Below, piece after piece: positions 51,023-61,385 of a stretch of 64,000 nucleotides of DNA. The stretch spans positions 106-64,105 of the forward strand of contig DATENJ010000477.1 in the NCBI GenBank assembly GCA_035275125.1, in the 5' to 3' direction. The DNA is from Actinomycetes bacterium. Its GTDB lineage: Bacteria > Actinomycetota > CALGFH01. The translations under genes and the position numbers were made by a program. Under the pieces are notes generated by a model, which was not told the origin of the DNA, searched no databases, and was given only the letters and a program-made list of their open reading frames with translations. Each line of letters starts with the position of its first letter. Position 1 is the first letter of the stretch.

Positions 51023-51207
51023 CTATCGCCTACTCCCCGAATCACGGATCGGTCCAGGTCAACTGTAGAGGGACCTAGGTCATCTGTCGCGTCGAGCTTG
51101 CGTCGCCCGACCGATGAACCCCCACCTCCCAGCTGGGATCATGCGGTTCGGCCGAAGGCGACCTTCAGCGTGGAATGCCTGTCTTGGGACTTCGGGAAGA
51201 GGCTCAG

Positions 51208-52191
51208 ATGCGCATTCAGCAGTCCAGCCACCAGGGATCTGTGGTGCTGACCCTGGCCGGCCGGCTCGACCTGGCGGCCGCTCCCCAGGTCCAGCGGGAC
51301 ATCCTCAAGCAGCTGGCCCAGCAGCCACCGGCGATCATCTGCGACCTGGCCCAGGTGGAGGCGATCGACTCGCTGTGTGCCGGGGTGTTCGCCTCGATCC
51401 GGCATCCTGCCCTGGGTTGGCCTGGCACGGCCCTGGTGCTGTGCGGCGCCCGGCCGGCGGTGGCCGACACCCTCGTCCAGCACGGGGTGATGCATCACCT
51501 GGCGATGTACCCCAGCCTGGATCAGGCGCTGGCCAATGCCCGCGCCCGACCACCACGGCTGGGGGCGCGACTGACCATGGGGCCGGTGCCGACCGCGGCC
51601 GCCGCTGGCCGGCAGTTCGTCGCGGAGGTATGCGGCCGCTGGGGGCTTCAGGTGCTGGCCGAGCCGGCGGCGCTGCTGGCCAGCGAGCTGGTCACCAACG
51701 CCGTGGTCCACGCCCACACGGCGCTGGAGCTACAGGTCGAGCTGCGCGGCTCCCGGCTGGAGGTGGCGGTGCACGACCAGGACCCGGACCTGCCGGGGTT
51801 GCTGGCCGCCAAGGACGGGACCGACCGAGGGCTGGGCCTGCAGATCGTGGACCAGGTGGCCACGACCTGGGGAGTGCGCCAGGACGAGGCTGGCGGCAAG
51901 ACCGTCTGGTGCACCCTGGACCTGCCACCGCCGCAAGCTGGCAGGGTCGGCGGCAGCCGGCAGGCCGGGATCGCCGCGCCGCTCACCGAGCGGGAGCGTG
52001 CCGTCCTGCGGCCGCTACCCACCCGGCTGTCGCACGGGGAGATCGGCCGTGAGCTGGATGTGTCGGTCAACACCGTCAGGAGCCAGGTCCAGGCCATCTA
52101 CCGCAAGTTCGAGGTCACGAGGCGAGCCGAGGCGGTCGCCCACGCACGCCATCTCCGCCTGCTCCCCGGGTCCAGACCCACCGACCCCTAG
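51208..52191 (+). CDS. fusion regulator: STAS (anti-sigma antagonist) + anti-sigma regulatory kinase (HATPase_c, RsbW-like) + LuxR-type HTH
   Basis: N-terminal STAS pattern (VVLTLAGRLDLAAAPQVQRDI...), a central RsbW-like ATPase (LVTNAVVHA, DQDPDLPG), and a C-terminal LuxR HTH (LTERERAVLRPLPTRLSHGEIGRELDVSVNTVRSQVQAIYRKF). Confidence 0.7.
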   Translation: MRIQQSSHQGSVVLTLAGRLDLAAAPQVQRDILKQLAQQPPAIICDLAQVEAIDSLCAGVFASIRHPALGWPGTALVLCGARPAVADTLVQHGVMHHLAMYPSLDQALANARARPPRLGARLTMGPVPTAAAAGRQFVAEVCGRWGLQVLAEPAALLASELVTNAVVHAHTALELQVELRGSRLEVAVHDQDPDLPGLLAAKDGTDRGLGLQIVDQVATTWGVRQDEAGGKTVWCTLDLPPPQAGRVGGSRQAGIAAPLTERERAVLRPLPTRLSHGEIGRELDVSVNTVRSQVQAIYRKFEVTRRAEAVAHARHLRLLPGSRPTDP

Positions 52192-52467
52192 GCGTCAGGG
52201 AGCGTCGGCCGCTCCAAGGCGGCAGCGTAGATTCGCAGCACTCCGGTGACCACGGCGAAGATGGGCGTCGGGTCAACGCCGAGCTCGGCTGCTCGCATCG
52301 CCTGGGGCAGGATGTCGGCCTCCAGGAAGCCGAGGAGCAGGCGAATGAGCTTCACGCCGACCTCCGCCACCTGCATCTGGTCGTGGGTGACCTGGCCCAG
52401 GGACTCGCTGATCGCGGCGGCCAAGGCTTCCGAGTCCAGCTCAGGGGCTGGATCGCCAGTTGGCATG
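52188..52467 (-). CDS. small hypothetical helical protein
   Basis: 93-aa ORF with RBS AAGGCGGA; no known family. Confidence 0.35.
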
Positions 52468-52605
52468 GGGTCCGCCTTGTGTGTGGTCGGTGAGAATAGC
52501 CCGACTTCGCCCAGGGTGGCAACCAGACTACCCACAGCGGCCGCGACGGACCCAGGCGTCGCCGCTACAGGCGCGGACAGACCTACCGACTGATGCGGTG
52601 AGCGA

Positions 52606-54003
52606 TCACTGCGCCGGCGTGCTGGGCTGGATGTTCTTGTTGTTGTGGAACACGTTTGCGGGGTCGTACCTGGCTTTCACCTCGGCGAGCCGCCGGTACG
52701 TGTTGTCGCCGTAGGCCTCGCGGACGCGGCTCGTGTCGTCGTCGGAGTCGAGGAAGTTCACGTAGACGCCGGCGCGGTGGGGCTGCAGGGCGTCGAGGAA
52801 TGCTCGGGCCCACGCGGTCTCCGATGCCCTGATGGTGTCGTCCTGCTCGGGGAGCCAGGCTGCGTCGATGACGATGTTGTGCTCCACATCACGCCCGGGG
52901 TAGGCCGTGGCGTCCCGAGGGGCTCGGGCGACCGCGCCACCCATGTGGAACACCGCCGCGTACGACATCGGGGAGGTGGCCCCGTAGGCGTGCGCGGCGA
53001 CGATGTCGATGACCTCGTCGGACAGGCGGGTGAGGCTGGTGGCCTTCCAGTAGTAGTGCCAGCCATGGGGGACGGTGTCGTCGAGGCCGCGCTGATGGTC
53101 GACGTACAGGGTGGGTCCGACCAGATCCACGAGCGGGGTCCCGAACTGGCGGAGCCCACGGACGGCAAGCTCACCTGCCTCCACGGGTCCGGCGTAGCAG
53201 CTGGCCACGGCGATTGCCGGCCGGAAGCGGAGGTCCTCGTCGACACCCGGCAGCGGCGGGATCGTGCCGAGCCGGATGACGGTCCCGAGCTCGTCGGGCG
53301 CGTCGGCGACGAAGTCCCGGTAGAAGCGCAGGACCTCGGTGGTGTCCTCGGCCGCCCAGAACACCGGTCCGGCCATGACGGTGGGGCCGACCGGGTGCAG
53401 CGCGAACCGGAACGAGCTGACGACGCCGAAGTTCCCGCCGCCGCCTCGCAGGGCCCAGAACAGGTCGGGGTGCTCGCTGGCCGACGCCCGCACGATCTCG
53501 CCCTCGGCGGTGACCACCTCGGCCTGGACGAGATTGTCGACGGTGAGCCCGTACTTGCGCATGAGCCAGCCGATGCCGCCGCCCAGGGTGAGGCCGCCGA
53601 CGCCGGTGTGACCCACGATGCCGCCCGTGGTCGCCAGACCGTACGCCTGTGTCTCGTGGTCGACATCCGCCCACAGGGCACCGCCCTGGACGAGGGCCGT
53701 GCGTTCCACAGGGTTGACCGACACGGCACGCATCGCCGACAGGTCGATCAGGATCCCGCCGTCGCACACCGCGGTGCCGGCGACGTTGTGACCCCCGCCG
53801 CGAACGGCGATCTCGAGATCGCGGTCGCGGGCGAAGCGGACCGCTGCGGCCACGTCGGCGGTGCCGCCGCAGCGGGCAATCAGCCGAGGTCGCCGGTCGA
53901 CGATGCCGTTCCATACGGCCCGGGCGTCGTCGTAGTCATGGCGGTCGGGGACGATCACATCGCCCCGGAACCCAGGAATCTGCGTCGTGGTTGGTGCTGA
54001 CAT
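52606..54003 (-). CDS. FAD-linked oxidase (FAD_binding_4 / BBE-like oxidoreductase)
   Basis: FAD-binding PCMH domain (RGGGHNVAG, GGGIGWLMRKYG) and C-terminal BBE-like region (AYVNFLD). Confidence 0.85.
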   Translation of the reverse strand: MSAPTTTQIPGFRGDVIVPDRHDYDDARAVWNGIVDRRPRLIARCGGTADVAAAVRFARDRDLEIAVRGGGHNVAGTAVCDGGILIDLSAMRAVSVNPVERTALVQGGALWADVDHETQAYGLATTGGIVGHTGVGGLTLGGGIGWLMRKYGLTVDNLVQAEVVTAEGEIVRASASEHPDLFWALRGGGGNFGVVSSFRFALHPVGPTVMAGPVFWAAEDTTEVLRFYRDFVADAPDELGTVIRLGTIPPLPGVDEDLRFRPAIAVASCYAGPVEAGELAVRGLRQFGTPLVDLVGPTLYVDHQRGLDDTVPHGWHYYWKATSLTRLSDEVIDIVAAHAYGATSPMSYAAVFHMGGAVARAPRDATAYPGRDVEHNIVIDAAWLPEQDDTIRASETAWARAFLDALQPHRAGVYVNFLDSDDDTSRVREAYGDNTYRRLAEVKARYDPANVFHNNKNIQPSTPAQ

Positions 54004-54128
54004 CGTCCCTCCTCTGGTGGATGGACTCATCGCAACATCGGGGGGCACTGAGGAGAAGTCAGCGATCTGGACTTTGAAGTAAGAAATCTGGACTTCACGG
54101 CGGTCGGTTGCCGCGGGACACTGCGGTC

Positions 54129-54821
54129 ATGAGGACCTACGGTCAGTACTGCCCGATCGCCCGTGGCGCGGAGATCTTCGCTGAGCGTTGGACGCCGTTG
54201 ATCGTCCGCAACCTGCATCTGGGCTGTGAGACCTTCGGCGAGATCCTCGAGGGTGCGCCCGGGCTCTCCCACACCCTGCTCGCGCAGCGGCTCAAGCAGC
54301 TCGAACGCCTCGGCATCGTCGAGTCGGCACCGAAGGCGCAGGGGCGCGGTCACCGATACCAGCTCACGAGCTCGGGCCACGATCTGTTCAAGGTCTGCGA
54401 GACCCTCGGCGAGTGGGGCGCTCGTTGGCTCGAGATCGCCCCCGAGAACCTCGATCCCTACGTGGCGCTGTGGTCGATGTGCAACGCGCTCCGCCGGGAC
54501 CGGCTCCCGGACCAGCGCGTGGTCATCCGGTTGGACTTCACCGGCTACCGTCCTCACGAGCGGTACTGGCTGCTGCTCGAGCACCGCGAGGCCGAGATCT
54601 GCAAGACCTATCTCGGCCTGGACGAAGACCTCTACATCACCGCCGACGCCGAAGCGTTCGTGAAGTGGCACGCCGGGCAGCTGTCCTGGGCGGAGGCCAC
54701 CCGCGACTCCCGGATCCAGCTCCACGGCCCGTCATGGCTCGTGCGGGCCTTCCCGAGCTGGAACGGCCGCAGCATGTTCGCCCACATCAGACCCGACGCC
54801 GCCACTGTCACCGCGAACTGA
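54129..54821 (+). CDS. HxlR-family transcriptional regulator (long form with C-terminal domain)
   Basis: HxlR wHTH (YCPIARGAEIFAERWTPLIVRNLHLGCETFGEILEGAPGLSHTLLAQRLKQLERLGIV); divergent from the FAD oxidase. Confidence 0.75.
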   Translation: MRTYGQYCPIARGAEIFAERWTPLIVRNLHLGCETFGEILEGAPGLSHTLLAQRLKQLERLGIVESAPKAQGRGHRYQLTSSGHDLFKVCETLGEWGARWLEIAPENLDPYVALWSMCNALRRDRLPDQRVVIRLDFTGYRPHERYWLLLEHREAEICKTYLGLDEDLYITADAEAFVKWHAGQLSWAEATRDSRIQLHGPSWLVRAFPSWNGRSMFAHIRPDAATVTAN

Positions 54822-55774
54822 CGCTGGCCGGCAGCGCGCTCGTACAGGCCGACAACCTGGCCTCGGTCGTTGAGGTCGTGGGCCTGGCTGTCGGATGAGG
54901 CGAGCGGGTGATCGATCGTCGTGTAGGCGCCGCTCTTGTACCGGAAGCCGTGGCGGACCTGGTTGGCATCCAGGTAGAAGCCCACGACGTGGCCGCGGTT
55001 GTTGATGCCGAAGGGGACGGTCGCCACGGCACCGGGGAAGGCAAGCGTGGTGAGGCCGCCGTTGGCTTCTCGAAGGTACACGCGAGTCGCTCCCGCGGCG
55101 TCGAGGTAGAAGCCGGTGGTCTGCCCGCGAGCGTTGCTGTCGACTGCCGTGGACTGCAGGGCGCCGGGGACGTCGATCGTGGTGTAGATCCCCTTGTCGA
55201 GGAGGAACCCGTGAAACGCTCCTCCGGCATCGACGTAGGTGCCGACGACCTGGCCGCGGTCGTTGAGGCCCAGGGCCTGGGTCGGCGCGCCGGGGACGTC
55301 GATCGTCGTGAAGCGGCCCTTGTCCAGCAGGTAACCGTGGCAGCCGCCGCGCGCGTCCTCGTAGTCGCCCAGGATCTGCCTGCGGGCGTTGATCCTCAGC
55401 GCAATCGTCCGCGCGGCGCCCGGGACGTCGATGGTCGTGTAGCGCCCGCGGTCGAGGACGAACCCGTGGACGGCGAAGCCGGCGGTGTCGTAGCCGCCCA
55501 CGATCTGGCCGCGGTTGTTGATGCCGAAGGGCGCGGTCTCCAGGACGGCGTCCGGGTGGTCGATCGTGGTGAACTCACCCCGGTCAAGGAGAAAACCGGG
55601 GCCGAGCGGATCCACGGGATCGTCCGCGATGCAGCTGACCGGTGGCGGCTCCGCGGCCCCGGCGGGGGCGGGACCGGCCACGACGAGCGTCGCGAGGAGG
55701 AGGGCGGCCGCCAGGATCCTCCAACCACTGGTGGTGCTGTCCGTCGGGATCTCGGTGAGCGAAGGGGACGCCAT
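54632..55774 (-). CDS. secreted tandem-repeat protein with HAF-like ~47-aa repeats (x6), paralogue 1
   Basis: Signal peptide (LAAALLLATLVVAGPAPAGAA), then the repeat unit [YF]TTIDxPGA..T.A.GINNRGQ[IV]VG.Y.DA.G..HGF.LD. Its 3' end overlaps the HxlR gene by ~190 nt, so the true stop is uncertain. Confidence 0.6.
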   Translation of the reverse strand: MASPSLTEIPTDSTTSGWRILAAALLLATLVVAGPAPAGAAEPPPVSCIADDPVDPLGPGFLLDRGEFTTIDHPDAVLETAPFGINNRGQIVGGYDTAGFAVHGFVLDRGRYTTIDVPGAARTIALRINARRQILGDYEDARGGCHGYLLDKGRFTTIDVPGAPTQALGLNDRGQVVGTYVDAGGAFHGFLLDKGIYTTIDVPGALQSTAVDSNARGQTTGFYLDAAGATRVYLREANGGLTTLAFPGAVATVPFGINNRGHVVGFYLDANQVRHGFRYKSGAYTTIDHPLASSDSQAHDLNDRGQVVGLYERAAGQRQFAVTVAASGLMWANMLRPFQLGKARTSHDGPWSWIRESRVASAQDSCPACHFTNASASAVM

Positions 55775-55823
55775 GCTGGTCTCCTCTCCGGTGCGGGTCG
55801 GTTCTCTCGCCCGACCAGCCGGG

Positions 55824-56870
55824 CTACGGGAGCATGGGGTCCATCGTGCCGAGCGGATCCAGGCCCATTGCCCCGCCGGCGGCACCGCCGGCCGCCGGGT
55901 CGGTGTAGTAGCCGACGATGTGGCCACGGTCGTTGATCGCCGTCGCGAACGTCGAAACCGCTCCTGGCACAGCGATCCGTGTGGGCTCTCCGTCGTCATA
56001 CCGGAACGCGCGGAGCGTCACGAAGGTGCCGTCCGCACTGAGAAACGCAGCGGTCGCAGCGGTCTGACCGCGATTGTTGAGCCCGATGTGGATGGTCTGC
56101 ACCGCCCCCGGCACATCCGGCAATCTCGTGAAGGTGCCGTCGCGCTCCCGCAGGAACGTGTAGTGGCTGTTCTTCGGGTCGGCCGGAACAAACGCCTGAC
56201 CGATCGACTGGCCGCGGTCGTTGATGTCGTTGAGGGTGGTGTTGGACACACCGGGAGCGTCGACCCTGATGAACCGCCCGTCCTCGTAGATGTAGCCGCG
56301 GAGGAACCGCAGCGGCACCTGCCGGTCCACGTCGCTGTAGATGCCGACCACCTGGCCGCGGTTGTTGATTCTCCAGGCGAGGGTGGTCAGCGCGCCAGGG
56401 ACGTCGAGCGTGGTGAACTTGCCGCGGGCGCTCCGCAGATACCCGTGGGCCTCCCCCATCGTCGGGTCGTACCTGAGGAGGGAGCCGACGGTCACGCCGC
56501 GGTCGTTGCCGCCGGTGAGGTCGTTCTCCAGGTCCCCAGCTGGGTCGTCGAACTTCGTGTACCTGCCGCGCTTGTCCAGGCGGAAGCCGTGCAGCCGGCC
56601 GTCGGCGTTGGCGTAGTAGCCGATGACATCACCGCTGTTGGTGATGTCCCACGCCTCGGTCCTGGTGGCGCCGGGGAAGTCGATGGTCCGGTAGCGCTCG
56701 CCGTCGAAGACGTAGCCGTGGATCGCACCTCGTGCGGGAGCGGCGTCCTGACCGTCCGAGGTCGCGGCGGCGGCGGGTAGCCCGCTCGCCGCCAGCGTCA
56801 CGGCGGCCAGCACGAGAGCGGAGACGACTGCTGCGCGGATGCGATGTGGGTATCGGGTGATGCGCACCAT
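55824..56870 (-). CDS. secreted tandem-repeat protein with HAF-like repeats, paralogue 2
   Basis: Signal peptide (AAVVSALVLAAVTLAASG) and the same repeat family (HGYVFDGERYRTIDFPGA, TLDVPGALTTLAWRINNRGQVVG). Confidence 0.6.
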   Translation of the reverse strand: MVRITRYPHRIRAAVVSALVLAAVTLAASGLPAAAATSDGQDAAPARGAIHGYVFDGERYRTIDFPGATRTEAWDITNSGDVIGYYANADGRLHGFRLDKRGRYTKFDDPAGDLENDLTGGNDRGVTVGSLLRYDPTMGEAHGYLRSARGKFTTLDVPGALTTLAWRINNRGQVVGIYSDVDRQVPLRFLRGYIYEDGRFIRVDAPGVSNTTLNDINDRGQSIGQAFVPADPKNSHYTFLRERDGTFTRLPDVPGAVQTIHIGLNNRGQTAATAAFLSADGTFVTLRAFRYDDGEPTRIAVPGAVSTFATAINDRGHIVGYYTDPAAGGAAGGAMGLDPLGTMDPMLP

Positions 56871-57056
56871 GCTGGTGCACCCCCTTCCTGTCATGCCGGA
56901 GGTCGTCACCAGATGTTCGCCGCGAACGGCCAGCCGGATCGGCTCAGGCCGGAATCACCCGGGCGGGGTGAGGACGGGTCACCCGGGCCGCCATCGCCGC
57001 GACTAGGGCCAAAGGGCCGCCCATCACGGGGCGGCCCTTGGCATGGCTGGGAGCGG

Positions 57057-59009
57057 TCAGGGTCTGATCTGGCTGAAGCGGGTGGCCCAGTTGGCCAGGG
57101 CGGTGCGGGTGCCACCGCAGCTGCCGAGCTCCGGCCCGGCGTTGGCGAACCACTCGGTGAGGGTGCAGGTCTGGTTGATGTATTCGTTCGCGATCCAGAT
57201 CGAGTTGCCGTCGGCCACGGCGGCGCCGTAGTCACCCCAGCGGGTCCGCGGTGGGTCGCCAACGAATGCCTTGTAGCTGGTGAACCCGTCCGAGACGCCC
57301 TTGCCTTCGGCGGCGACCCGGACCGGTCCCGCACCAGACTTCAGGTCGAGCCCGGCGTAGGCCGCGCTCGGGTAGTGGTCGGCGCCGACAAGGGTGAAGG
57401 AGATCACGGCGCGGCCGGCGTCGGTGACCCCGACCGTCGGGTAGGTCAGGTTGTTGTTCTTCACGCCCAGGTAGCCCTGCTTGACGATGGAACCGCTCAC
57501 GGCCGACCCCGAGACCTTGGGCCGGACGACGAAGAACTCCAGGCCCGCCTTGGTGGCGCCGCCGACGTTGACGGCGGTATCGAGCGAGCTCCAGAGCTTC
57601 CCGTCGGCGAAGGTCACCTGGTGCATGCGGGTGTCGCTGGCGTCCAGGTGCGAGATGACCTCGTCGTGGGCGGGTTCCTCGGTGAAGAGCAGCTGCCAGC
57701 AGCCCGGCCCGAACGGCGTCGCCAGGGTGGTGTCGTTGACGCATTGGCCGAGCGGGAAGTCGCCGGGCTTCTGGTCGGCCTTGGGCGAGATGCTGTAGGT
57801 GCCGACGTTGATGAGGGAGTTGCGTAGGACCGGCTGGGGGTTCGAGGTGAGCAAGGTCGCCGTCCTGGTCAGCGACCAGATGGCGATGCGGTTGTCGGTG
57901 CCGTTGCCGTTGGCCTCCTCGGCGGCCATGGAGCTGAGGAAGTACTCGGTCCCGGCCTGAGCCAGCTCGTACCGGATGCCGGGGGTGACCCCAGGTCGCA
58001 GGGTGAAGCCCGGGTTGCCGTTCACCGCGCCGACAGTGTCGATCTGGGTCACGTTCACGGTGGCGGCGTTGCGGGCCAGGGCGAACTTGTTGAACGCATA
58101 GACCTGGGCGGCGTGGAACCCGTCGGCGAAGAACGGGTACTCGTTGGTGGTGATGTAGAAGCCGAAGGCGTCGGCGCCGATCTGGGGGTAGTCGCCCAGG
58201 CATGGCCCACCCTCGCAATTGTGGTCAGGGGTCCCGTCGGTGCCGTCGTCCTGCACGGGCACGCTGTAGATGGCCCACTGGCCGGTGGGATTGCTGGTCT
58301 TGCTGACGGCGATGTCCAGGTGGTTCGTGCCCACGAACGCCCCGTCTTCGGGATCCGCGTCGAGGGTCAGCACGACGTGGAACCACCGTCGGGTGACCCG
58401 GTCGAACAGACAGCTCGGGTCGGTCAGGAACGGCCCGAACTCCCCGGTGGTCCGGTTGATCGCCGGCGGGTAGCCGTAGAAGGTGTTCTGGTCGGTCACG
58501 CCGGTCACCGGGTTGCCGGCCGTGTCGTACACGCGCAGGACGTCGTTGACGGTCTCCAGCACGAAGCCATTGCCCACGCACAGGCCCTGGTCGGGCGGTT
58601 CCAGCGAGAACTGGTTGCCGCCGTTGGCGGTGCGCTGGTCGCGGTGGTTCAGGCCGTCGATGCTGCGGACCAGCCTCGGGCTCGACGTCACCTTGGCGCC
58701 GGCCACGGTGGCGCCGGCGTGGCTACGCAGCCCGCGCGAGAGGCTCCGGTCGACGGTCACGCCCCGGCGGGCGGTGGCCACTCTGGCGGCGGCCTCGTCG
58801 GCGTCAGGCTCCTCACTGGGCCGGATCTCCGGCTGCTGGAGGGCCCCACTGCCGACCGAACCGCCACGGATCGATGTCGTCCCACCACTGGGAATCTGCC
58901 GGGTGACGGTGTCCGCGCGCGCCGGCGGGACACCCGCGCCCACCAACAGCAGCGCCGCGCAGACCAGGACTGGTACCAGCGACCAAGCCAGCACGCTCCT
59001 GCGGTTCAT
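57057..59009 (-). CDS. large secreted hypothetical protein (651 aa)
   Basis: N-terminal signal peptide MNRRSVLAWSLVPVLVCAALLLVGAGVPPARA and strong codon bias; no family recognised. Confidence 0.55.
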   Translation of the reverse strand: MNRRSVLAWSLVPVLVCAALLLVGAGVPPARADTVTRQIPSGGTTSIRGGSVGSGALQQPEIRPSEEPDADEAAARVATARRGVTVDRSLSRGLRSHAGATVAGAKVTSSPRLVRSIDGLNHRDQRTANGGNQFSLEPPDQGLCVGNGFVLETVNDVLRVYDTAGNPVTGVTDQNTFYGYPPAINRTTGEFGPFLTDPSCLFDRVTRRWFHVVLTLDADPEDGAFVGTNHLDIAVSKTSNPTGQWAIYSVPVQDDGTDGTPDHNCEGGPCLGDYPQIGADAFGFYITTNEYPFFADGFHAAQVYAFNKFALARNAATVNVTQIDTVGAVNGNPGFTLRPGVTPGIRYELAQAGTEYFLSSMAAEEANGNGTDNRIAIWSLTRTATLLTSNPQPVLRNSLINVGTYSISPKADQKPGDFPLGQCVNDTTLATPFGPGCWQLLFTEEPAHDEVISHLDASDTRMHQVTFADGKLWSSLDTAVNVGGATKAGLEFFVVRPKVSGSAVSGSIVKQGYLGVKNNNLTYPTVGVTDAGRAVISFTLVGADHYPSAAYAGLDLKSGAGPVRVAAEGKGVSDGFTSYKAFVGDPPRTRWGDYGAAVADGNSIWIANEYINQTCTLTEWFANAGPELGSCGGTRTALANWATRFSQIRP

Positions 59010-59565
59010 GGTTTCTCCGTTCGGTGCTCGTGCGGACGCCCATGCGTCCTGCACGGAGTGGCGACGAATGGAGAGGGACGGCGGAGCGCGAGCTGGGCAT
59101 CGTTGCCGAGGCTCGGCCATGCAGCCTCCTTCGCAGGACCGGCGGCAGCCGCTTGGGCGACAAACGACCACCAACGCAGAAGACCCTGACGATCAGCCCG
59201 GATCGTGTCAATCGGCCCGCACTACGACATCGGGCGTAAAGGCACATACAGCTCCGCGGGGTGTCGACCAGCGTCGCCGGGGGCCGGTGCTCGACACGGC
59301 CAATGCGGCCCTGGGCTATCTGGAGGAGCTGTTCCCCGACAGCATCGGTGAGGCCTGCTTCATCGACCGGGCCGGACCTGAGAACGCCCGCATGGTCCGC
59401 GGCGTGCGGGCAACCCTTCAGGACCTGGCCACCCGAACGGGCAAACGCAACCACCAGCGTCCTGGATCGCGTGCCCGACCGCGCCTAAGCACTCCCGCGA
59501 CCTCCCTCGTGGCGCTGGCCGCGCCGAGCGTGCGGCCGGCATCGGCTTAGGGCACGGTAGGGACC

Positions 59566-60414
59566 ATGAGCAGGTGGCACGTCAGCAACGAGGTCCGGAG
59601 CAAGATCGCCAGCACGGGGCCACTGGGTCGGGCCTGGCTGGACGAACTCGCGCGCGGTCCCGCGATGACGGCTGACGTGGAGGAGGTCGAGGTCGTCGTC
59701 GCCCATCAGGAGCGCATCACCCTGCGCGTCGGCGACGTCTTCGTGAAGCTCGACGCTGACCGGTCACGCCTCGATGTCGAGGTCGAGGCGATGACGATGG
59801 CACCGGTCCCGACTCCGGAGATCCTGTGGCGCAAGCCGCACGAGCTCGCGCTCGCCGCCCTCCCAGCGACAGCACTCGGCCGCCTCGGCCAGCCGTCGCC
59901 CTCGCGGCCAGCGGCGTGGGCCGCTGCGGGAGCCGCCGTCCGGACGCTGCACGACGCGCCGCTGCCCCCATGGCGCAGTCGGAAACTCGACGGGCTCGCA
60001 TCACAGCTCGACAGCGAGTGCGAGTGGTTCGTCGCCAACCGGGTCCTTCCCGCCGACGTGGTCACGCACAACCGGCGGCTGGCCGAGGGGGCGCTCCGGC
60101 CGTCGACGCCGGTGTTCATGCACGGCGACCTGCAGGTCTGCCACATCTTCGTCGACGGTGACAAGGTCACCGGCATCCTCGATTGGTCCGAAGGCGGCCA
60201 GGGCGACGCGCTGTGGGACCTCGCCACCCTCACGATGGGGCACCCCGAGCACCTCGGCGACGTCATCGCCGGCTACGGCACCGACGTCGACCTCGACATG
60301 GTCCGCGGGTGGTGGTCGGTGCGTTGCCTGCTGGCGACCCGCTGGCTGGTCGAGCACGGCTACGGTCCCGCCGAGGAGTATCCCGAGGTCGCCCTGCTGA
60401 GGTCCCAGCCGTAA
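59566..60414 (+). CDS. phosphotransferase-enzyme-family kinase (aminoglycoside phosphotransferase/APH-like fold)
   Basis: Brenner-type catalytic motif HGDLQVCHIFVDGDKVTGILDWSEGGQGDALWDLA. Confidence 0.75.
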   Translation: MSRWHVSNEVRSKIASTGPLGRAWLDELARGPAMTADVEEVEVVVAHQERITLRVGDVFVKLDADRSRLDVEVEAMTMAPVPTPEILWRKPHELALAALPATALGRLGQPSPSRPAAWAAAGAAVRTLHDAPLPPWRSRKLDGLASQLDSECEWFVANRVLPADVVTHNRRLAEGALRPSTPVFMHGDLQVCHIFVDGDKVTGILDWSEGGQGDALWDLATLTMGHPEHLGDVIAGYGTDVDLDMVRGWWSVRCLLATRWLVEHGYGPAEEYPEVALLRSQP

Positions 60415-60495
60415 GGCTCGGCATCACGGACACCCTCATTGGACATGTGGAGCAATTGGGAGGATTATCCCCCGATTGCCCGTCCGGAGGTGCGA

Positions 60496-60741
60496 ATGCG
60501 CTACAAGGTCGGTGCCGAGCAGCTTGAGCGGGTGCCATCGCTGGCCCATCGGCCTGACGGGGTGTTCCGGGTGGCCCGGACAGCCCCGGTCGGCCCAACC
60601 CATGCCGTCTGCGCCCGGACCGGGGCCACGGTCTGCGGGATGAAGCCTGACGCCCTTGTGGTGCTGGATGAGGATTGGGAGGCGGCCTGCTTTGTCGAGA
60701 AATGCTCGGCCTGCTTCGTCGCCCTCGCCGGCGGAAGCTGA
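60496..60741 (+). CDS. small Cys-rich hypothetical protein (possible metal-binding)
   Basis: 81-aa ORF, RBS GGAGGTG 5 nt before the ATG; Cys pattern C-x7-C...C-x4-C-x2-C. It overlaps the GrpB 5' region, so it is tentative. Confidence 0.3.
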   Translation: MRYKVGAEQLERVPSLAHRPDGVFRVARTAPVGPTHAVCARTGATVCGMKPDALVVLDEDWEAACFVEKCSACFVALAGGS

Positions 60742-60785
60742 CCGCCTCCTGTAGGAGTCGAGGGCGGCCGTCGGCGTGTTGGAGG

Positions 60786-61385
60786 ATGATCGAGGCCATG
60801 GACGAGCCGGCCCCCTTACAGCGGCGCTCTCGGGATGGTGGGCCAGATCCCGTCGAGATCGTGGCCTACGATCCGACCTGGACGGCACGGTTCGCCGAGC
60901 TGGGCCGCGATCTCCGCGCCGGGCTGGGTGAGGTCGCGCTTCGGATCGACCACATCGGCTCCACCTCGGTGCCCGGCCTGGCCGCCAAGCCGATCGTCGA
61001 CATCCAGGTCTCGGTGGCCGACTTCGAGCCGCTGGCCGCGTACCGGCTGCCGCTGGAGCGGTTGGGGTATGTGTACAGGGCCGACAATCCCGAGCGGACC
61101 AAGCGGTACTTCCGGGAGCCGCCTGGCCGTCGCCGGACCCATGTGCATGTGCGCCGGGCGGGCAGTTTCTCTGAGCAGTGGGCGCTGCTGTTCCGCGACT
61201 ACCTGCGCGCAGACCCTGACGCGGCGGTCGAGTACGAGGCGGTGAAGCGACGCCTGGCCATCCGCTATCGGGACGACCGCAGGGCATATGTCGACGCCAA
61301 GGGGCCGTTCCTGTGGGAGATCATCCGCCGGGCCGACGACTGGGCCCAGACCCAGGGCTGGTTCCCCGGTCCCAGCGACGCCTGA
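60786..61385 (+). CDS. GrpB family protein (UPF0157; nucleotidyltransferase-like)
   Basis: VAYDPTWTARFAELGRDLRAGLG...IDHIGSTSVPGLAAKPIVDIQVSV...RTHVHV typical of GrpB. Confidence 0.8.
   Translation: MIEAMDEPAPLQRRSRDGGPDPVEIVAYDPTWTARFAELGRDLRAGLGEVALRIDHIGSTSVPGLAAKPIVDIQVSVADFEPLAAYRLPLERLGYVYRADNPERTKRYFREPPGRRRTHVHVRRAGSFSEQWALLFRDYLRADPDAAVEYEAVKRRLAIRYRDDRRAYVDAKGPFLWEIIRRADDWAQTQGWFPGPSDA

Follow-up and report, generated by a model that had tools for sequence, protein, structure and literature searches.

HAF-family extracellular repeat proteins (TIGR02913, which overlaps with PF11949/DUF3466; COG name 'uncharacterized membrane protein') contain units of ~40-48 residues in tandem, which carry an N-x-R-G-Q...H-G-F signature and follow a putative N-terminal secretion signal; members of the family commonly end in a sorting signal, for example PEP-CTERM. 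Two classes can be distinguished, namely a short single-propeller class (six units, 320-360 aa) and a class of 12-14 units (580-650 aa) that scores above the DUF3466 threshold. Here we analyzed a 64,000-nt window from a contig of the metagenome-assembled genome of a soil actinomycete, in which two genes of the short class (designated A and B) are adjacent to a third gene (C) whose product had been described as a protein with no recognisable domain. A and B share the units and the signature with other HAF-family proteins and have an N-terminus of the Sec type as judged by eye, but both differ in having no C-terminal sorting signal of the PEP-CTERM kind, and A ends in a non-native tail. The three genes had been proposed to form a small secreted or cell-surface locus. 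Our results suggest that they are probably three independent secreted beta-propeller genes that were juxtaposed by lineage-specific rearrangement and do not constitute a dedicated system.

Gene organization and coding evidence

Genes C, B, and A are arranged consecutively and face a convergent gene for an HxlR-family regulator (Table 1). The latter, whose residues 4-229 are 79% identical to a protein of Kribbella sp. NBC_00889, is genomic context and lies outside the HAF/C set. The 651-aa protein mentioned in the initial annotation corresponds to C (650 residues plus the stop codon). B and A are separated by only 49 nt and are probably co-transcribed. Plausible ribosome-binding sites were found ahead of all three ORFs. 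Considering that the GC content at codon positions (GC3 of 0.88-0.93 and GC2 of ~0.52) is typical of coding DNA in a genome of ~70% GC and that homologues of these proteins number in the thousands, the concern that the repeats might be an artefact of translating the wrong strand can be dismissed. Codon usage of A, B, and C is the same as that of neighboring genes, giving no compositional sign of recent import. No Rfam family was detected over positions 52000-61000, PADLOC defence-system models gave nothing meaningful, and a scan for consensus promoters and terminators found nothing, as expected for a high-GC actinomycete.

Table 1. Positions of genes and sequence features in the window
Feature	Position	Strand	Description
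Gene C	57057-59009	minus	650 aa plus stop; exact match to GenBank HKQ01496.1 ('hypothetical protein')
Putative Sec signal peptide of C	58914-59009	minus	MNRRSVLAWSLVPVLVCAALLLVGAGVPPARA followed by DT; cleavage inferred after residue 32 from sequence features and hydropathy
GC-rich hairpin	57009-57042	minus	Stem of ~14 bp, CCAAGGGCCGCCCC-loop-GGGCGGCCCUUUGG; 14 nt past the C stop; from sequence and RNA folding
Gene B	55824-56870	minus	348 aa; looks full length; exact match to GenBank HKQ01495.1
Gene A	54632-55774	minus	380 aa; ORF with upstream GGAGAGGAGACCAGC-ATG
Native part of A	54824-55774	minus	Codons 1-317: Sec-type N-terminus, short Cys-containing segment, six HAF units
Non-native tail of A	54632-54823	minus	~64 codons antisense to the 3' end of the HxlR gene
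HxlR-family regulator	54108-54821	plus	237 aa; convergent with A; appears intact; Pfam HxlR 61.5 bits

The N-termini of A, B, and C were inspected by eye and by hydropathy, and each contains basic residues, a hydrophobic core of 15-22 residues (mean hydropathy 2.5-2.8) and an Ala-X-Ala-like site, with putative cleavage after AGAA in A (residue 41) and near AAAA/TS in B (residue 36). No later segment of the three proteins is hydrophobic enough to span the membrane according to hydropathy. Judged from these N-terminal features only, all three proteins are probably secreted, which agrees with the signal peptides initially assigned to them.

HAF repeats and predicted propellers of A and B

Both proteins exceed the curated NCBIfam cut-off of TIGR02913 (22.65 bits, whole-protein score), with 67.2 bits for A (E-value 8.5e-19, four stretches) and 43.7 bits for B (E-value 1.9e-11, three stretches), confirming their assignment to the HAF family; their homologues are annotated as 'probable HAF family extracellular repeat protein'. 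Scores against PF11949 (20.2 bits for A and 23.5 bits for B) are below the gathering threshold of 25.1 bits, which distinguishes A and B from the longer class, many members of which do carry PF11949. Six repeat units were identified in each protein, with a period of 42-44 aa (A) or 44-48 aa (B), the joint consensus G..TT.D.PGA..T.....N.RGQ..G.Y...A.G...HGF and a mean pairwise identity of 39% between units. Thus, the initial count of about six copies in A was correct, but the period is 42-48 aa instead of ~47. The HG[FY] motif is present in four of the six units of A and two of the six units of B, and is degenerate in the others (RV-Y, RG-Y, RA-F).

The beta-propeller-like fold anticipated for HAF repeats in the initial annotation is borne out for A, which was modelled by AlphaFold as a confident six-bladed beta-propeller (pLDDT >90 over residues ~57-315, 24 strands) with six four-stranded antiparallel sheets in a closed ring. 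In both A and B, a Sec-type N-terminus would be followed by six units, each forming one four-stranded blade of a six-bladed propeller. Considering the fold and the family, these propellers may most likely be non-catalytic modules that bind an extracellular carbohydrate or protein ligand. Searches with single sequences and profiles identified no sequence relatives in the PDB.

A and B are diverged paralogues (36% identity) of the single-propeller class. We also considered a recent tandem duplication, which was rejected because of this low identity and because more similar homologues of each protein (tblastn, 84-87% identity at the protein level) occur alone elsewhere; for B, the homologue in loci L090-L092 is 84% identical over the full length.

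An abnormal C-terminus of A at the HxlR gene

It had been noticed that A overlaps the convergent HxlR gene by ~190 nt and suggested that its C-terminus might be mis-called or frameshifted. The overlap was confirmed (54632-54821, 190 nt) and the C-terminus is abnormal, but neither explanation is supported: the native tail was replaced at a rearrangement junction that lies beside the stop codon of HxlR. Protein and DNA alignments show that the conserved tail of ~42 residues in relatives of A (...SPLTSWWTxSGxxxxQ) is missing from A. For every close relative, homology to A breaks off 2-3 nt from the HxlR stop codon (at 54824-54826 in six relatives), and these six remain 81-92% identical among themselves up to the real end of the gene. 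A frameshift was rejected because the native tail is encoded in no frame of the window and its DNA has no match anywhere in it. The native 42-codon tail would therefore have been lost at this junction, and A would now end in ~64 residues read antisense to HxlR, which are predicted to be disordered (pLDDT ~30), with the propeller intact. The frame of this tail may stay open because the third positions of its codons fall on those of the HxlR codons. The odd convergent overlap is thus explained by a junction-derived false C-terminus on A.

It might be argued that A is a decaying pseudogene, inactivated by tail loss and by its 190-nt convergent overlap with the HxlR gene, so that B and C alone would be functional. 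In favor of this view, the tail missing here is conserved among relatives with 68-86% identity, the sequence that replaces it is predicted to be disordered, and the protein collection contains no exact match to the 380-aa product, unlike B and C, which are present as annotated GenBank proteins. However, the frame, the ribosome-binding site, the signal-like N-terminus and the six blades are all intact, and the native part of A is 86-87% identical to its relatives at the protein level and 93% at the DNA level with no internal stop (for L083 and L093, the 93% DNA identity extends across exactly 54824-55734). Moreover, in L098, a more remote homologue, the sequence departs at the same boundary between propeller and tail, implying that the tail may be dispensable. 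Inactivation of A appears unlikely on balance, and we prefer to regard it as an intact propeller gene with a false C-terminus.

Protein C and its family

No match for C was found in Pfam, NCBIfam or the PDB sequences, the last also searched with profiles, and 38 relatives likewise gave no Pfam or NCBIfam hit. In addition, 39 members of its family compared with Pfam gave nothing better than an E-value of 0.06, with no propeller family among those hits, and C has no significant sequence match to Sialidase/BNR, WD40, YVTN, NHL, Kelch or other named propeller families. Fused domains were sought in 10 longer relatives and none was detected, and hhalign showed no connection of C to a BNR_2 propeller protein encoded in its neighborhood (probability 0.1%). 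The description of C as lacking a recognisable domain thus holds at the sequence level but not at the level of predicted fold, as AlphaFold modelled it as a seven-bladed beta-propeller (pTM 0.83, 28 strands).

The C family is very large, with more than 6300 homologues detected; it comprises at least 3193 clusters at the 50% identity level, and it is conserved across phyla at 45-58% identity (Actinomycetota, Chloroflexota, Acidobacteriota, Collimonas, Polyangia and others), and no model for it exists in any of the libraries searched. An alignment of 39 sequences revealed 130 invariant columns, including all eight cysteines that follow the signal peptide of C and probably form disulfides; the N-terminal pattern of C is also conserved in the family consensus. 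Such unusually strong conservation is more in line with an extracellular enzyme than with an adhesin. It is possible, and only tentatively proposed here, that the family represents unrecognised secreted seven-bladed propeller enzymes with invariant cysteines, distributed across phyla in soil bacteria and having a new activity on extracellular substrates.

The GC-rich hairpin downstream of C (Table 1) is probably its terminator. It lies within a DNA block common to the C relatives L084-L089, which ends at 57012, and it was not flagged by the consensus terminator scan as it is not followed by a T run. C would then be a transcription unit separate from B and A, with its own hairpin terminator.

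Genomic context in related organisms

If C, B, and A formed a conserved gene cluster or operon, their arrangement should recur in other genomes. The C-B-A adjacency is absent from more than 120 related loci, including those of relatives with 90-95% identical proteins. None of 80 genomes has a HAF gene next to the C homologue, and no B, C, or HxlR gene was observed near the relatives of A in L081, in L083 and in 37 metagenome loci. Metagenome contigs are mostly 1-4 kb, making absence of neighbors there weak evidence, and the synteny argument rests on the long loci (L081, L086, and L090) together with the 80 genome loci. Relatives of C with 85-95% identical proteins have other genes downstream, and relatives of B (same 90%-identity cluster; 84% identity by tblastn and 91% at the DNA level) are flanked by a hydrolase gene on one side and a phage-integrase fragment on the other. 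When the ORFs lying up to 4 kb from C homologues in 82 loci were clustered all-against-all, no recurrent neighbor emerged and only generic families were seen, the largest being LuxR-type regulators (11 loci), ABC ATPases (9 loci) and a small secreted protein (7 loci). At the DNA level, four homology blocks were distinguished (52623-54793, 54824-55734, 55894-56942, and 57012-59263), each with different partners. As the arrangement is common to no relative examined, and C has its own terminator-like hairpin, the proposal of a single functional secreted or cell-surface locus is not supported, and a chance neighborhood is favored.

Sharp breaks of homology between blocks whose closest relatives have different contexts could in principle also be produced by assembly errors in a metagenome-assembled genome, in which case the whole arrangement, or at least the A/HxlR junction, would be chimeric and the odd C-terminus of A would exist in no cell. 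No other metagenome contig contained an exact 24-mer across this junction, but this test demands exact identity and its negative outcome is weak evidence. On the other hand, the junctions have no common repeat that might mislead a de Bruijn assembler, the homology to A relatives and that to HxlR relatives abut each other, and codon usage is uniform across the blocks. A chimera is thus rather improbable. Even less probable is that C, B, and A are one extracellular module newly assembled in this lineage, in which a propeller enzyme (C) would cooperate in adhesion or substrate capture with two lectin-like HAF propellers (B and A). In its favor, the three genes are close together on one strand, apparently encode secreted proteins that are all beta-propellers, and include a pair only 49 nt apart. 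Against it, none of the related loci shows this adjacency, C is set apart from B by a strong hairpin, the 3' end of A is truncated, and the closest homologues of each gene stand alone in unrelated contexts.

Downstream of C, the window contains the two HAF genes and a pair of HxlR and FAD-oxidase genes, and Kribbella sp. NBC_00889 has the same pair. One scenario considered was insertion of the HAF genes between an anciently adjacent C and HxlR; it is not firm, as the HxlR/FAD-oxidase pair in Kribbella is a strain-specific indel of 3 kb. A further possibility, weaker than that of a new enzyme family for C, is that cassettes are preferentially gained and lost immediately downstream of C-family genes.

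Comparison with known propeller proteins

The probable juxtaposition of three independent propeller genes is an ordinary finding of small practical value: A and B are ordinary HAF-repeat proteins, and C belongs to a widespread but nameless family. Nevertheless, annotation of A and B can be corrected to HAF-repeat six-bladed propellers, with a junction-derived false C-terminus on A, and treating A, B, and C as a single system should be avoided. Only C is of wider relevance, and its family could reasonably be chosen for a new Pfam entry as well as for biochemical screening.

Among known structures, six-bladed propellers comparable to those of A and B include the TolB C-terminal domain (1c5k, 2ojh), bacterial sialidases, tectonin and fish-egg lectins, and the sensor of Mycobacterium tuberculosis PknD (1rwi). 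Identity to these proteins is only 4-14%, a resemblance in fold that implies neither a sequence-level relationship nor family membership, and no catalytic sialidase motifs were detected. For C, the top Foldseek ranks were GH43 and GH33 enzymes with TM-scores of only 0.2-0.3. As the resemblance is at the fold level only, with no sequence match and low TM-scores, no family assignment of C is justified. In comparison with the seven-bladed YncE (3vgz), virginiamycin B lyase Vgb (2z2n), CylK (7ron) and WD40 proteins, to which it is similar only at the level of fold (5-13% identity), C is much larger, with ~540 propeller residues and long insertions; its eight invariant cysteines and an N-terminal linker that is long and poorly ordered also set it apart.

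Genomic neighborhoods of the three genes

Genes A and B, which encode HAF-repeat proteins, and C, which encodes a protein of an unnamed family, lie next to each other and are transcribed in the order C, B, A. The initial annotation had read them as one small secreted/cell-surface locus, which is not supported by comparison with related loci from other genomes and metagenome contigs (L numbers): relatives of C, B, and A share no synteny, and the four DNA homology blocks of the region have different partners for each (see table). By examining 8-kb flanks where the contig permits, a HAF gene was found near a C homologue in none of 80 genome loci, and clustering of all flanking ORFs revealed no recurrent partner of C. 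Even close relatives of C have other surroundings, namely no HAF neighbor (L082, 85% identical), an AhpC/TSA thioredoxin-like gene after it (L086-L089, 90%), or an unrelated convergent gene after it (L084, 95%). Relatives of A (64-87% identity) occur as a lone HAF gene without C, B, or the HxlR regulator gene (37 metagenome loci, L083, and L081, the last on a contig of 205 kb). Thus, C, B, and A do not form a system.

The closest relatives of B, in L090 and L091, share a 90%-identity protein cluster with it (84% identical by tblastn, 91% at the DNA level). They have an alpha/beta-hydrolase gene on one side and a fragment of a phage integrase on the other, with a phage capsid gene close by, suggesting that this HAF gene moves with or adjoins prophage remnants. 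Beside them we observed the 86-aa integrase fragment, a PG_binding_1 protein, a pentapeptide-repeat protein, and the capsid gene (L090, 4377-4637 and 10009-11175; L091).

Coordinates of genes and other features in the window
Feature	Position	Strand	Remark
338-aa ORF	51175-52191	+	putative fusion
HxlR/FAD oxidase pair	52606-54821		divergent
DNA block, HxlR + FAD oxidase	52623-54793
Stable RNA segment	54560-54640	-
A	54632-55774	-	380 aa; preceded by GGAGAGGAGACCAGC-ATG
A/HxlR overlap	54632-54821		190 nt
Loss of homology in A relatives	54824-54826
DNA block, A	54824-55734
B	55824-56870	-	348 aa
DNA block, B	55894-56942
DNA block, C	57012-59263
C	57057-59009	-	650 aa

Coding evidence, transcripts, and export

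The window comes from a metagenome-assembled contig ("Actinomycetes bacterium") and is high-GC DNA (~0.65-0.75 across 50-64 kb). C and B correspond exactly to GenBank HKQ01496.1 and HKQ01495.1, respectively, both annotated as hypothetical. Codon-position GC of the three genes (GC3 0.88-0.93, GC2 ~0.52) agrees with that of adjacent genes, and database searches yielded thousands of homologues; therefore, plus-strand ORFs here are the usual antisense ORFs of high-GC DNA, and the repeats as a wrong-strand artefact can be ruled out. A perfect GC-rich hairpin (~14 bp) starts 14 nt past the C stop codon, within the C block, and hence C is probably a separate transcription unit. In the 49 nt that separate B from A, RNA folding revealed no strong hairpin, and the two may be co-transcribed; this is the overall transcript structure that we infer.

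The N-termini of A (MASPSLTEIPTDSTTSGWRILAAALLLATLVVAGPAPAGAA, with putative cleavage before EPPP), B (MVRITRYPHRIRAAVVSALVLAAVTLAASGLPAAAA, before TSDG), and C (MNRRSVLAWSLVPVLVCAALLLVGAGVPPARA, before DTVT) are organized, on manual reading, into n-, h-, and c-regions like Sec signal peptides, and hydropathy analysis detected no sufficiently hydrophobic membrane-spanning segment after the N-terminus in any of them. Judged from sequence, all three proteins would be exported in a Sec-dependent manner.

The tail of A and the HxlR overlap

The overlap of A with the convergent HxlR gene, previously estimated at ~190 nt, was confirmed, and the C-terminus of A had been suspected to be mis-called or frameshifted. 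Homologues of A end in a conserved tail of ~40 residues (...SPLTSWWTxSGxxxxQ) that is absent from A in the window. A frameshift was rejected because the native tail is encoded in no frame of the window and homology ends at the junction. In DNA alignments, the window tracks A relatives until ...GCCGGCCAG and within 2-3 nt switches to the reverse complement of the HxlR 3' end (78% identity to Kribbella sp. NBC_00889). Homology is lost at the same place in all six relatives (80-93% DNA identity), which are mutually 81-92% identical up to the true gene end. On these alignments, the native tail of A has been replaced at the junction. The junction may be either biological or an assembly error; it contains no common repeat, which speaks against a chimera from de Bruijn assembly. 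Metagenome contigs searched for an exact 24-mer across the junction yielded no further instance of it. HxlR looks intact (alignable over residues 4-229 of 237). Beyond the junction, the frame of A stays open for ~64 codons, probably since it shares third codon positions with HxlR, and this read-through tail is modeled by AlphaFold with a pLDDT of ~30.

A distant A homologue (L098, ~1244-1260; 64% identity) likewise diverges from its relatives at the propeller/tail boundary, implying that the C-terminal tail may be a variable, dispensable appendage in this HAF subfamily. The RNA segment spanning the read-through stop codon of A and the downstream stretch folds at -36.6 kcal/mol, with greater stability than shuffled controls (z = -3.1); since the segment is part of the HxlR coding sequence, this may be a mere by-product of composition.

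The HxlR and FAD/BBE-type oxidase genes have a counterpart in Kribbella sp. NBC_00889 (L030, 9988-13047; 78% DNA identity, proteins 79% and 72%), where the pair is carried on a strain-specific indel of 3 kb immediately downstream of the C-family gene of that strain; the close relative K. capetownensis (L020) lacks the pair. Two lineages with C proteins just 49% identical therefore both have this cassette close to a C-family gene. A 338-aa ORF looks by eye like an unusual fusion of a putative STAS-like (anti-sigma-antagonist type) N-terminus, an anti-sigma-kinase/HATPase-like central region, and a LuxR-type helix-turn-helix C-terminus (…LTERERAVL…EIGRELDVSVNTVRSQVQAIYRKFEV).

The family of protein C

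C had been described as a 651-aa protein with no recognisable domain. This stands for sequence searches, as neither C nor any of 38 singly scanned relatives, 10 longer ones, or the family profile gave a Pfam, NCBIfam, or PDB match, but not for structure, as its AlphaFold model (pLDDT 79.7, pTM 0.83) contains 28 strands, is all-beta, and resembles a seven-bladed-type propeller. According to the secondary-structure list of the model, the fold would comprise seven four-stranded blades, with N-terminal strand 33-46 closing the last one.

More than 6300 of the 8000 scored candidates belong to the family at E ≤ 0.001; of clusters at 50% identity, 3193 reach E ≤ 0.001 and 742 reach E ≤ 1e-30. Most members come from metagenome-assembled genomes, and hosts include Actinomycetota, Chloroflexota, Acidobacteriota, Collimonas and other Betaproteobacteria, Polyangia, Verrucomicrobiia, Gemmatimonadales, Meiothermus, and Isosphaerales, with between-phyla identity of 45-58%. 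In an alignment of 39 sequences, 130 columns are invariant; eight of these are cysteines, which are compatible with an extracytoplasmic protein. Because conservation is unusually strong, C is predicted to be an enzyme. This large, unnamed family is the sole element here deserving further work.

Six of 82 loci encode, no farther than 4 kb from the C homologue, a large BNR_2-like (sialidase-fold) secreted protein (L077, 787-3063; similar ORFs in L023, L053, L061, L079, and L086); its sequence relationship to C is undetectable (hhalign probability 0.1%).

HAF-repeat proteins A and B

A and B contain six repeat units each, spaced by 42-44 and 44-48 aa, respectively, with a common consensus (G..TT.D.PGA..T.....N.RGQ..G.Y...A.G...HGF) and a mean pairwise identity of 39%. 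Their assignment to the HAF family is borne out by the NCBIfam model TIGR02913 (HAF_rpt; 67.2 and 43.7 bits, curated cut-off 22.65), and both score under the cut-off of 25.1 for the overlapping Pfam model DUF3466 (20.2 and 23.5 bits). Many homologues are labeled "probable HAF family extracellular repeat protein" and fall into two classes, with a single array (~320-360 aa) or of double length (580-650 aa). A and B are 36% identical, which argues for old paralogues; a fresh duplication was rejected. The earlier prediction of propeller-like modules agrees with a confident six-bladed AlphaFold model of A, and both proteins would serve in ligand binding. In the literature searched, HAF repeats receive little more than passing mentions, in three papers. 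Taken as a whole, this is ordinary biology, correctly observed: A and B add two members to a known, little-studied repeat family, A with a tail derived from the junction, beside a member of a large unnamed one.
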